Source: an uncultured archaeon
GTDB taxonomy: Archaea; Aenigmatarchaeota; Aenigmatarchaeia; CG10238-14
Assembly (NCBI GenBank): GCA_964392445.1
Contig: CAYMPD010000009.1
Coordinates: 1 to 35,099 of the forward strand
Reading direction: 5' to 3'
Length of the DNA stretch: 35,099 bases
The translations under genes were made by a program, and so were the position numbers. The notes under the pieces are model-generated. The model did no database searches. It was not told where the DNA came from and saw only the letters and a list, made by a program, of their open reading frames with translations. Positions 267 through 3,318 of the stretch are shown here, in pieces. How positions within the stretch are numbered: the stretch's first letter is position 1; each line of letters starts with the position of its first letter.

Positions 267-722
267 TCACTCTGGGTAATCGGGTCCTCCTTGTCCTTTA
301 ACATTAGCATTCCAGATTTGCTTCATTTTCTTCTCTGTAATGTCTGACGTATCCCTGGGTTTCTGTCCTGTTTGTTTCCATTTAGAATCACACTCAGCAC
401 ACTCGTAAAAATATCGATTACGGCCATCTTCTAATTTGATTACCTTGACTAGTACGTTATCTCTGTGTTCGCATGGTTTCCCTTTGTACTCATCAGGATT
501 AAAATTCTTGGGATTAAACTTCTTATTAGATTTATCCACTTTCTTAAACTCATGTTCTTGTACTTCTGGTATATCTAAGAATCCATCTTCTCTGACTTTA
601 TATCGCTTCTCTTTTGGTTTATACTTCTCGATTAATGAAGATATGCGTTCGGTAAAATTTCTGCCTGGTGATTGTTTTAATTCTTCATGCAGTCTTTTGT
701 CTATTTGGATTGTCTTTTTCAT
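267..722 (-). CDS. RHH-like N-terminus plus Zn-ribbon protein
   Basis: MKKTIQIDKRLHEELK...NFTERISSLI is RHH-like; CEH...CAEC is a putative metal site; TATA box 23 nt upstream. Confidence 0.6.
   Translation of the reverse strand: MKKTIQIDKRLHEELKQSPGRNFTERISSLIEKYKPKEKRYKVREDGFLDIPEVQEHEFKKVDKSNKKFNPKNFNPDEYKGKPCEHRDNVLVKVIKLEDGRNRYFYECAECDSKWKQTGQKPRDTSDITEKKMKQIWNANVKGQGGPDYPE
291..350. repeat. 60-bp direct repeat, copy 1 (3' end of gene 267-722)
   Basis: 55/60 identical to 918-977 by manual alignment. Confidence 0.95.
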
Positions 723-817: not shown

Positions 818-847
818 CGAGCGAGCAAACTTTAGTTTGCGAGCGAG
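818..847. repeat. CGAGCGA-[6-bp stem, TTTA loop]-GAGCGAG motif, copy 1
   Basis: cgagcga gcaaac ttta gtttgc gagcgag; same 30-nt architecture as 1996-2025. Confidence 0.85.
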
Positions 848-917
848 TGATGAATATTAAATAATCTGCCAACTGCCTTAACCGGTTACCCTGGATTATT
901 AACAAGACGGTTGATAT

Positions 918-977
918 TTGTCCTTTAACATTAGCATCCCAGATTTGATCCATTTTCTTCTCTGTAATATATGACGT
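918..977. repeat. 60-bp direct repeat, copy 2 (duplicated fragment of gene 267-722)
   Basis: 55/60 identical to 291-350; minus strand reads TSYITEKKMDQIWDANVKGQ versus TSDITEKKMKQIWNANVKGQ. Confidence 0.95.
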
Positions 978-983
978 GTCGTA

Positions 984-1037
984 TCCATAGGAAATATAGG
1001 TTAAATCTCCATTTGAAACTCCACTGGAAACGGGGGG
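984..1037 (+). promoter_or_regulatory. Cluster of three mini-ORB-like boxes (TCCA-N3-GAAA), the last followed by a G6 string
   Basis: TCCATAGGAAAT (984), TCCATTTGAAAC (1008), TCCACTGGAAAC-GGGGGG (1020); matches the archaeal Orc1/Cdc6 origin recognition box pattern. Confidence 0.65.
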
Positions 1038-1072
1038 AGTTAAATTCCTGTACAGCTATCTTAACAGGCTGT

Positions 1073-1414
1073 TTATCGGTAAGAAATAAAATCAATCATG
1101 TCCTCCGGTGTGATCCTTTTGTTGAATTTTTGATTGACAACTTGTGCCCATCTTTCAGCTGTCTCCGGATTCTGAACAATAAAATTCTCTGCTTTTCTCA
1201 CAAACTTCCTGGGAACTCCAATAAATTTATTTTTCAATTGTTTTTCCTTTTCATGTTTTTTTATAATTTCCACATCGTCAATCGCCTGTGCCAATGCGTT
1301 CCTGCACACTTCTGAAACGTTAAACATTCTTTTCGCTTTTTCAAGAACTCGGCTTTCTACATTTATCGTAGTAGTAGTCAGATTATCAAATTCCTTCGGT
1401 CTTCCAGCTCCCAT
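1073..1414 (-). CDS. RHH (CcdA/CopG-like) DNA-binding protein
   Basis: GRPK motif followed by TTTINVESRVLEKAKRMFNVSEVCRNAL; GGTGA RBS upstream. Confidence 0.7.
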   Translation of the reverse strand: MGAGRPKEFDNLTTTTINVESRVLEKAKRMFNVSEVCRNALAQAIDDVEIIKKHEKEKQLKNKFIGVPRKFVRKAENFIVQNPETAERWAQVVNQKFNKRITPEDMIDFISYR

Positions 1415-1486
1415 ATAATCACCTAATATAATTAATTAATATGTATATATATAATTAATTAAGAGTTAGTTGTTAGTTAGTAGAAA

Positions 1487-1508
1487 TCTCCAGTGGAAAT
1501 CAAGGGGT
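1487..1508 (+). promoter_or_regulatory. Full-length ORB-like element
   Basis: TCTCCAGTGGAAATCAAGGGGT has both the TCCA-N3-GAAA core and the G-string; next to an almost pure A/T tract at about 1423-1462. Confidence 0.7.
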
Positions 1509-1661
1509 GAGAAGAAAAAGGCCGAGACCACCCATAAACCATTTTTATTTTCTAAGAAGAGACGCTGTAGTAGAAGTCTGCATTTGAAATGAAGGTCCCG
1601 AGCCGACTGAATTTTCACCGAGCGTAAGCGAGGGGAATATGAAGGAGGCGAGGGAATAAAA

Positions 1662-1949
1662 TTAACTTTCAATTCTACGATAACCTTCAGAAGCAGTAGT
1701 AGGCATATCTCCTTTTAGTCTATGCGCCTGGAAATCATCACGGGTTAAAGCTTGAAACTGTCCATTAGTACTCCTGTCTAAGAAACGACTCATCTCGATT
1801 AAGTATTTAATTACTCCGTCTAGTTTAATTGTATTCTGCACTATCTGATCTACCTTTGTATCTTTCTCAATCAAACCGTTAATGAATTCGCTGTACTCCT
1901 TCAGTTTATCAACTAACTTTTCCTCCAATGATACTGATCTAAAACTCAT
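1662..1949 (-). CDS. Hypothetical protein with RHH-like N-terminus
   Basis: MSFRSVSLEEKLVDKLKEY pattern; AT-rich TATA-like sequence upstream. Confidence 0.55.
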   Translation of the reverse strand: MSFRSVSLEEKLVDKLKEYSEFINGLIEKDTKVDQIVQNTIKLDGVIKYLIEMSRFLDRSTNGQFQALTRDDFQAHRLKGDMPTTASEGYRRIES

Positions 1950-1995
1950 ATAATAAATTTATAATAAAACATATAATAACTTATCGGACACCAAC

Positions 1996-2025
1996 CGAGC
2001 GAGGAAAATTTATTTTCCGAGCGAG
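1996..2025. repeat. CGAGCGA-[6-bp stem, TTTA loop]-GAGCGAG motif, copy 2
   Basis: cgagcga ggaaaa ttta ttttcc gagcgag; the stem differs from copy 1 but remains fully paired. Confidence 0.85.
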
Positions 2026-2154: not shown

Positions 2155-2711
2155 GCCGAGCCCGAGCGACCAGCAGGAGCGAGGGCGAGGAATAGAATAG
2201 AGAATAGAATAGGATATTATATGACCTAATAAAAAAAGAGCTATAGAACTCTCAACCTACTAAGTACCTACTTAGTGTCTAACCTGCTAAATTAGGGACT
2301 TAGAGACCTAAACGTACAAGCATTTTATATTTATTAGTTGCGAAACGTCGGGTGGCTATAATAACCAAAGGATCAGAAATACTCTGCTAAACATATTTTA
2401 AATTAAATAATAGCAGTAAGAAATAGTTCTAGAGTTCTTTAAACAAGAGTTTGAGAAGCGTTAAAGAATTTTAAATTAAGTATTGTATAGGAGGTATATG
2501 GAGGGAAGGTTGTTATTTTTGTGTTGCATCCCTCAACTCATTCGCATCCAGCAAGAGTTTGTACCGCTGGACACTCAATCGTTTCGGGGTTGAATAGAAA
2601 AAGAGAGAAGGCCCCTAAGCCTTCTCACGAATTGTGTGATAGAAATATAATAAGAACAAATAAATTAATAAATCACACGGTCATAAGTAAGGATGTTCGT
2701 AAGGATAACTA

Positions 2712-2742: not shown

Positions 2743-3114
2743 GTGATAAACTTGACAGAACAAATTGAATTAAATAATTTGGAGAATGAGAGACTGTTGA
2801 AGTTTCTTTTGGCTGAAGGTATAGATAGGACTGATGTGGAAACTGTAGACCTTAAAGGAATATCAACTAGTGAAGACACATTAGCTTTTTTGAGCAAGGA
2901 TAAAGCAAGAGTGTTTTTGAGCAGGACCAGGGTACCAGATGAGAATGCAATATCAGTGTTTACAATGGACCAGTTAGATAATTGTCGTAAGGTTTTGGGA
3001 AAGGATTCTTACGTTAAGTTTACATCTAACTCTGAGTACCCAGTTATGGTTTGTGATCAAGACGGTCGGAATGTAATTGTACTTGCGCCTATAGCAAAAC
3101 AAACAGAGGAATAA
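2743..3114 (+). CDS. Single-domain sliding-clamp (PCNA C-terminal)-like protein
   Basis: SVFTMDQLDNCRKVLGKDSYVKFTSNSEYPVMV...IVLAPI follows the PCNA C-terminal pattern (Y/F..L..+.K.L...V.+....P+.+...+.LAP); only about half the length of PCNA. Start may be TTG at 2752. Confidence 0.45.
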   Translation: MINLTEQIELNNLENERLLKFLLAEGIDRTDVETVDLKGISTSEDTLAFLSKDKARVFLSRTRVPDENAISVFTMDQLDNCRKVLGKDSYVKFTSNSEYPVMVCDQDGRNVIVLAPIAKQTEE

Positions 3115-3117
3115 AAC

Positions 3118-3318
3118 ATGGCTTTGGTAAATCAGTTAAGCGAAAAAGAGCAATTAATGAAAGACTGCAGGGACAGGATAAGAGAAGTTGAATCTAAAGG
3201 TAATAGACCTACTATACTGTTAGTGTTGCAGTGTTTGGAATTTCTATTGCGTAAATCTAAAGATGGGGGGGTTGGGGATTATTCCGAAGTTAAGCAGATT
3301 AAGGAAGAAGTATTTTGA
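3118..3318 (+). CDS. Hypothetical protein
   Basis: ORF tiles directly after the previous gene on the same strand. Confidence 0.55.
   Translation: MALVNQLSEKEQLMKDCRDRIREVESKGNRPTILLVLQCLEFLLRKSKDGGVGDYSEVKQIKEEVF

Follow-up and report, generated by a model that had tools for sequence, protein, structure and literature searches.

Candidate REP- and PeSL-like hairpins with tandem G.A steps between small genes of an archaeal virus-like contig

Repetitive extragenic palindromic (REP) elements are described in PMC6006769 as hairpins with a tetranucleotide at the foot, the tag GT[AG]G located 0-2 nt 5' of the foot on one side, and REPINs as inverted doublets of such elements. According to PMC6006769 and PMC3733652, REP elements are presumably recognised in single-stranded form, on one of the two DNA strands; both papers report such families in bacterial phyla only. 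Reading as hairpins on one strand is also described for the ends of IS200/IS605 insertion sequences (IS) (PMC6006769). In T4-type phages, promoter early stem-loop (PeSL) cassettes, in which a promoter and a stem-loop precede ORFans, are known as recombining units (PMC2839356). In this study, we analyzed a 35,099-nt stretch of DNA (the window), comprising bases 1-35099 of the 41,710-nt contig CAYMPD010000009.1 (here C9), from a bin of 1.215 Mb and 54 contigs (GCA_964392445.1; 94.9% complete) assigned to an uncultured archaeon of the Aenigmatarchaeota, whose relatives have genomes of 0.3-2 Mb. The window carries two 30-nt hairpin elements, copy 1 and copy 2, and further members of the same family (Table 1). 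These hairpins share a fold pattern built on tandem G.A pairs, have covarying stems and a strand bias, lie between genes and have relatives elsewhere. The explanation that we lean towards, tentatively and at somewhat less than even confidence, is that they are REP- or PeSL-like, strand-specific boundary hairpins of early-gene cassettes, read as single-stranded nucleic acid by a putative protein.

Copies 1 and 2 each consist of the 8-mer CGAGCGAG, 14 nt centred on TTTA, and CGAGCGAG again. Sequence, flanks and loop are as the initial annotation had described them, including the two positions per arm at which the stems differ while staying fully paired. Its view of the element as a hairpin held for the inner stem; the flanks had been taken only as identical, and their tandem G.A pairing in CGAG context had been missed. 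In RNA folding, one CGAGCGAG faces the other as C-G, G.A, A.G and G-C in two rounds, and the stem of copy 1 takes in the last G and the first C of the flanks. As the flanks thus pair mutually below the stem, each element is a single long hairpin of 14 'pairs' on the + strand. CGAG (pyrimidine-GA-purine) is a favoured context for sheared tandem G.A pairs. The G.A steps are present only on the + strand, the - strand offering pyrimidine mismatches instead, and the element is therefore strand-specific. Using RNA parameters, the minimum free energies of the six hairpins of this kind on C9 (+/- strand, kcal/mol) are -12.9/-8.7 for copy 1, -16.9/-12.3 for copy 2, and -11.1/-12.0, -18.7/-17.2, -11.2/-9.0 and -17.4/-12.7 for the others, with -17.4 (z -3.9) on the + strand for the long hairpin at 2156-2190. 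The + strand is the more stable one in five of the six with RNA parameters and in all six with DNA parameters (margin 0.8-2.6 kcal/mol). Kink-turns and K-loops, the sites of L7Ae, have tandem G.A beside a 3-nt bulge or a capping loop. The G.A steps found here are instead predicted as symmetric 2x2 internal loops between Watson-Crick pairs, which does not correspond to such a site. A TGAAT pentamer lies 3 nt past copy 1 (851-855, +), recurs past copy 2 (2029-2033) and directly follows copy 3 (C9 37747).

Table 1. Hairpins, neighbouring genes and remnant. Numbering is that of C9, whose first 35,099 bases form the window.
Feature	Position	Strand	Description
Hairpin copy 1	818-847	+	CGAGCGAG, 6-bp stem GCAAAC/GTTTGC, TTTA loop, CGAGCGAG
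Hairpin copy 2	1996-2025	+	Flanks and loop as copy 1; stem GGAAAA/TTTTCC
Mini-hairpin	1618-1633	+	CCGAGC-GTAA-GCGAGG; two 2-bp Watson-Crick steps around one tandem G.A; GNRA-type loop
Long hairpin	2156-2190	+	Three G.A-type interruptions; 9 Watson-Crick pairs and 3 tandem GA
Copy 3	37715-37746	+	Left flank CGAGCGAT, stem CAACCT/AGGTTG, loop TGTG; found by word search
Copy 4	36182-36201	+	Short CGAG flanks, stem GGAGA/TCTCC; found by scripted pattern search
151-aa gene	267-722	-	Downstream of copy 1; N-terminus RHH-like by eye only; no Pfam match
113-aa gene	1073-1414	-	Downstream of mini-hairpin (203 nt); no significant Pfam match
95-aa gene	1662-1949	-	Downstream of copy 2; no Pfam match
63-nt remnant	918-980		90% identical to 291-353, where genes 267-722 and 35-310 meet; non-coding

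All six GA hairpins on C9 fold on the + strand, and four of them lie inside the window. The two looser relatives that had been listed alongside copies 1 and 2 are real family members, with coordinates better given as 1618-1633 (not about 1599-1632) and 2156-2190. A scanner that accepts Watson-Crick pairs and tandem GA, run on both strands of the 1.215 Mb, returned only 817-848, 1995-2026 and 2156-2190 when at least two GA steps and at least nine Watson-Crick pairs were required, and hairpins of comparable strength were absent from the other 1.17 Mb of the bin. With looser settings, it returned five hairpins on the + and one on the - strand of C9, and 70 in the other 1.17 Mb. In the long hairpin, the two arms have the Watson-Crick blocks CC, GCCC, GC and CC in inverted and the GA steps in direct orientation. 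The same arrangement is seen for copy 4, which is nested (C9 36167-36216) in an outer stem GGGAAC/GTTCCC that is itself CGAG-flanked. Inverted blocks combined with direct GA steps fit a fold, not a direct-repeat binding site.

This observation bears on an improbable alternative, in which the element is a double-stranded operator. The direct CGAGCGAG repeats, 22 bp or two helical turns apart, would bind a common regulator such as a ribbon-helix-helix (RHH) tetramer, and the cassette-specific central palindrome would bind its own dimeric regulator, so that the 'compensatory' changes would reflect dyad symmetry rather than a hairpin. Covariation by itself does not tell a palindromic operator from a hairpin, and the elements do lie just upstream of putative promoters, those of small genes with N-termini that resemble RHH proteins by eye only; Pfam does not support RHH in these open reading frames (ORFs). 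The 22-nt spacing, as claimed initially, is exact in copies 1 and 2; it is 24 in copy 3 and variable in the relatives from another genus that are described below. The long hairpin, the mini-hairpin and the nested copy keep the pairing scheme with differing block lengths and no fixed direct repeat, and in one relative (from genome G179) Watson-Crick pairs of the stem are swapped for tandem GA. Because the paired blocks of these looser members are inverted and their GA steps direct, the operator explanation is weakened.

A chance origin was ruled out by shuffling, bin-wide pattern counts and stemless flank matches. Allowing at most one mismatch, CGAGCGAG occurs 13 times in the window against 5.0 expected, a count reached in 1 of 100 shuffles. 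The double-flank pattern is found twice in the whole bin, as copies 1 and 2, and its reversed control not at all; CGAG-stem-CGAG with a stem of at least 4 occurs three times in the bin, always on the + strand of C9. A flank-only scan of IMG/VR gave 59 matches in 57 stretches, none of which had a stem of at least 3 bp. Thus, the perfect 6-bp stems of copies 1 and 2 are not a chance outcome of their flanks. The setting is CpG-poor and AT-rich, as previously stated (contig CpG observed/expected 0.62, GC 36%). No CRISPR-like array or tRNA was found to account for the elements, and an Rfam scan of the window at gathering score assigned no family.

Relatives were sought in several collections. The three-copy covariance model, the type of scan proposed in the initial annotation, matched only its own three copies in the bin and gave weak, probably chance matches in 150 related genomes (best E 7.6e-4). 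A metagenome pattern search returned two perfect 32-nt relatives with the stem TTTTGG/CCAAAA; two 16S rRNA helices that fit the same pattern were set aside as chance matches. The sequence of the 32-nt relative is also present in 'archaeon isolate SMAG_U8005' (genome G178, by genome scan). In a scan of 371 genomes from the phylum, the bin, G178 and its congener G179 were the only ones with flank-only matches, two each, and the reversed control had two matches in all. In a set of seven copies, none of which was chosen for pairing, 91.5% of cells are paired versus 70.9% after shuffling (0 of 500 shuffles) and 23-51% against a slid partner; each of the five inner pairs varies at both of its positions. 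The paired fraction is 93.1% if a hand-picked eighth copy is added; a Halobacteriales match, which was picked because it is paired and may be chance in 65% GC DNA, was excluded from the 7-copy set. The outcome feared initially, flanks kept with stems unpaired, is therefore not what the relatives gave. The stems change between copies and nevertheless pair, both in the virus-like contig and in relatives that flank-only searches had found, and the initial proposal of a structure-selected cis element is thus supported.

G178 and G179 represent another genus, g84, of the same archaeal class. Here, every copy belongs to a unit of about 110-170 nt, in which it forms the right half and an inverted partner the left. 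BLAST finds this dispersed unit at 16 places per genome. In 82 kb of g84 loci we counted 25 distinct GA hairpins, 13 of them with two or three GA steps, that share GCGAG/CGAGC feet, covarying stems and the apex TGAG-TTTA-CGAA; in one copy from G179, tandem G.A takes the place of stem pairs that are Watson-Crick in others. Of the apex 12-mer, there are 9 and 10 occurrences in the two g84 genomes, at most two in each of 369 others and none in the bin that holds C9. Palindromic units of about 130 nt in G178 and G179 include one inserted between rpl22 and rps3 and one 16 nt before the start of sufC on the sense strand (the names rpl22 and rps3 are our own reading of the translations). The units at these two places are kept at orthologous sites in two species that are 83-85% identical there.

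A related design was also detected in an IS element of the bin itself. Positions 9088-10520 of contig C24 hold two tandem 708-nt IS200-type elements (PF01797, 81.9 bits), each preceded by TCTAGATT. Their left and right end hairpins have the stem CCACCAGT.../...ACTGGTGG with GA hairpins at the tips, all on the tnpA sense strand. A further hairpin, placed straight after the tnpA stop, resembles the virus copies in its arms, CGAGCGA and GAGCGAG, and aligns with 2156-2190 at 21 of 31 positions (own count). C24 is otherwise cellular-looking, and its PIN, nucleotidyltransferase and radical SAM genes ruled out the idea that it is a second virus; GA-cis, an Rfam family considered below, was not found in the IS200 ends of C24. 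Homologues of tnpA are present in 30 of 201 genomes of the class. Of 29 tnpA loci from the class, all 28 outside the bin are devoid of GA hairpins, and a Y1 transposase is not supported as general reader; the GA part thus looks like an added cap and not like a recognition site of the transposase. The likeness to IS200/IS605 ends is confined to C24, where the hairpins fold on one strand and one has CGAGCGA arms, while no virus copy adjoins a transposase.

With these relatives in hand, one might regard the virus copies as selfish passengers without a role in the virus, that is, as solo remnants of a repeat of the miniature inverted-repeat transposable element (MITE) or REPIN kind that spread from a cellular genome. 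We consider this very improbable. The lineage-restricted dispersed doublets of g84 and the insertion of related hairpins in the loop tips of the bin's IS200 end hairpins are what such a repeat would leave behind, yet all six virus copies have one orientation and sit at gene-cassette borders, none of them has an adjoining inverted partner, and two species with about 84% identity have retained the g84 units at orthologous sites.

The position of the hairpins relative to genes leads back to the boundary explanation. All six lie in gaps between minus-strand genes, which agrees with the non-coding setting noted earlier, with the caveat that copy 3 is coding if a 76-aa ORF rather than an internal start is used. 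The next minus-strand ATG is 46 nt from copy 2, 47 nt from copy 4 (32 from the outer foot), about 34 nt from copy 3, 95 nt from copy 1 and about 205 nt from both 1618-1633 and 2156-2190; the mini-hairpin also lies 28 nt past the stop of gene 1662-1949. As the hairpins fold on the + strand opposite the flanking genes, the stable strand is the template strand of those genes. The remnant at 918-980 (Table 1), 71 nt from copy 1, appears to be a duplication or recombination scar at a cassette border.

PeSL cassettes are alike in that a stem-loop is joined to the promoters of small early genes, most of them orphans, within a plastic part of the virus genome where cassettes recombine. Here, hairpins lie 32-95 nt before start codons, with the junction remnant close to copy 1 and promoters placed by eye only. 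The PeSL stem-loops differ in that they have plain G/C stems and act as terminators in the sense RNA beside sigma-70 promoters (PMC2839356), whereas the hairpins of C9 have their stable fold opposite the genes, in antisense, belong to an archaeal host and are not followed by a T-tract. With REP and REPIN elements they share their short, intergenic nature, a conserved tetranucleotide at the foot, complementary stem changes and an occurrence as singles or as inverted doublets that form a long hairpin. They differ from them in the archaeal and viral setting, in the small number and solitary state of the virus copies and in the absence of a RAYT or Y1_Tnp protein among the 37 C9 proteins scanned; dispersed doublets are found in g84, but neither in the virus, with its six solitary copies, nor in the rest of the bin. 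Of the sub-types listed in the initial annotation, a REP-like or protein-binding hairpin gives the best fit, given the inverted doublets dispersed in another genus and the IS200-type hairpins in the bin.

Potentially, the system works as follows. On the single + strand, Watson-Crick blocks would alternate with CGAG tandem G.A steps, and the CGAGCGAG flanks would zip up below a variable stem of 5-6 bp with its TTTA loop. Solitary copies sit at the upstream edge of successive small minus-strand cassettes, on the opposite strand. The hairpin would be portable and would be recognised in its folded state, most likely as single-stranded DNA, at its CGAG foot by a structure-specific protein. It may mark cassette borders, provide recombination joints for the shuffling of cassettes and possibly insulate neighbouring transcription units. 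That DNA in single-stranded form and not RNA is active, that a protein reads it and that the role lies in boundaries or recombination is our inference.

Several results weigh against this explanation. The strand preference is small with DNA parameters, and with RNA parameters one copy is reversed. The tag is CGAG on both sides, joined through tandem G.A, and not a one-sided GT[AG]G. Dispersed copies are absent from the bin's own chromosome, unlike in a classical REP host, and the covariance model found none in 80 IMG/VR loci of distant virus relatives (terminase 36-50% identical, 1.19 Mb). Natural variants of copies 1 and 2 that would reveal covariation within the population were not seen, as contigs from three DNA runs of one study are identical there. 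TATA-like AT-rich boxes between hairpin and start were placed by eye only. As to the reader, Pfam gave no HUH/Y1 transposase, L7Ae or primase in 37 distinct proteins of the contig, a set that does not include every ORF. GA hairpins lie within 220 nt of tnpA at 1 of 29 loci, the bin's own; the only tnpA of G178 is partial and has a plain hairpin, and none is present in G179.

In the terminal hairpin of parvoviruses, the Rep-binding element consists of GAGC-type repeats beside a hairpin and is read by an HUH protein, the repeats being ordinary duplex DNA. No Rep-like gene was found on C9. The 8-mer also appears in a paper on adeno-associated virus (AAV) terminal repeats; apart from that, nothing relevant came up in literature searches for this word or for archaeal repeats of tandem sheared G.A.

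An RNA motif is the strongest competitor, although we hold it to be unlikely. In that case the + strand would be transcribed, as a divergent or antisense small RNA or as a long leader of the + strand operon starting at 2743, and the hairpins would be protein-bound or cis elements of this RNA, similar to what has been suggested for the GA-cis candidate. The case for it starts with Rfam family RF02987 (GA-cis), which matches 1552-1647 (+) with 27 bits over the full model (E 0.024-0.05; genome-wide 7.5e-4). The second hairpin of GA-cis (CC, GA, GC, GNRA loop, GC, GA, GG) has the same design as 1618-1633, which drives the match, but the score falls short of the 34.7 set as gathering threshold, the fit of the first hairpin is poor, with four non-standard pairs, and the 30-nt elements themselves do not match. 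The main text of PMC5737381 contains no description of GA-cis. With RNA parameters, the + strand folds reach z -3.5 to -4.7 in four of the six hairpins, and three of the four copies of the 30-nt type have, by eye, an AT-rich box some 25 nt upstream on the + strand; at the same time, four of the six hairpins are not followed by a + strand gene. The g84 unit 16 nt before sufC, in sense orientation, also counts in favour of an RNA motif.

The mini-hairpin suggests another comparison. Mini-hairpin DNA of the form GCGNNAGC or GCGNAGC (Hirao and colleagues) is described at primase and hairpin-promoter sites (PMC13037366). Such DNA is purine-clamped, unusually stable and has sheared G.A, and its core form is present at 1621-1628 (GCGTAAGC, an instance of GCGNNAGC) only; a model hit over the mini-hairpin 1618-1633 covers 1613-1639 with 14.2 bits. 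The 30-nt copies lack this core, and their G.A pairs are tandem internal steps at the stem foot instead of a loop-closing pair. On this basis the + strand hairpins could be initiation signals on single strands, acting as priming or loading sites on a displaced strand or lagging-strand template near the origin-like region 1950-2742, an idea with a slim chance at best. Known parallels are the mini-hairpin-bearing sites of phage G4, ssiA/RepB' and the N4 hairpin promoters, and all copies lie on one strand within about 6 kb around the large non-coding region. The idea is countered by the 37 proteins scanned, none of which is a primase, a replicative polymerase or an N4-type RNA polymerase, and by the TTTA loops of the 30-nt copies, which are closed by Watson-Crick pairs and are not GNA/GNNA mini-hairpins. 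The 16-nt core of the mini-hairpin was found in 111 IMG/VR stretches versus 37 for the reversed control. The helix extends beyond the core by at least 1 bp in 63 of 113 matches and by at least 3 bp in 14, with chance values of about 25% and 1.6%, some of the contigs being interrelated. The threefold excess of this mini version over the control in public viral contigs indicates that the design may be general. Small viral contigs of about 3-3.7 kb in IMG/VR (L186, L193, L208, L267 and L268) carry the core with the same 5-bp stem agcact.../...agtgc.

It is tempting to speculate, as a quite improbable extension, that archaea, bacteria and their viruses share a widespread single-strand signal, so far undescribed, in the GA-clamped hairpins, together with a reader dedicated to it, and that in this virus the hairpins act as template-strand switches, extruded by supercoiling before early promoters, which turn cassettes on and off. 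If so, the switch hairpins would be an archaeal counterpart of hairpin promoters that uses the host's own transcription machinery. Returning to the boundary hairpins that we favour, elements of the REP and PeSL kind have been described for bacteria and phages, and a related design is seen here in a virus that was binned with an archaeon of DPANN type, as well as in an IS200 element and a second genus of the class. Its distinctive rule is that tandem G.A pairs part the Watson-Crick blocks, so that only one strand folds well. Such one-sided folding points to a single-strand process, be it replication, transposition, recombination or transcription bubbles, and the strand-specific fold provides a simple handle for finding the reader protein. 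The hairpin 'grammar' common to the virus and the IS element of the bin also gives independent support for the link between virus and host.

C9 (GC as given above) encodes a portal protein (PF04860, 3e-13), a weak match to an HK97-type capsid and a large ligase fusion, and its terminase has 367 homologues, which are on contigs of about 35-41 kb; the closest are 56-61% identical, on contigs of up to 40 kb. Thus, C9 is a tailed virus or provirus-like element. Neither the terminase nor the 151-aa protein found relatives in IMG/VR when searched as single proteins. Just past the window, a scaffold gap of 100 N (C9 35100-35199) has the same ~55 nt on either side and is therefore probably an overlap. 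The last 16 nt of C9 equal its first 16 nt, so that the genome, of about 41.5 kb, is possibly complete and either circular or terminally redundant. One of the small early genes, on the - strand (2792-3286 of locus L060), encodes a mini family-X polymerase-like protein of 164 aa (pol beta thumb 3e-8, palm 2e-4). In the large non-coding stretch at the end of C9 (41281-41400; about 6082-6200 of L060), more purine-clamped + strand stems were recognised by eye only, including GCGAAGC and GCGGGC/GCCCGC with TGAA on either side.

The stretch is matched in three DNA runs of one microbial-mat study, and no RNA run containing it was found. In one of the three, a variant of gene 1073-1414 (window 1081-1264) with 16 differences in 184 nt is present beside the identical form. 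The same DNA runs contain, on another contig, a 37-nt look-alike of 2159-2195.

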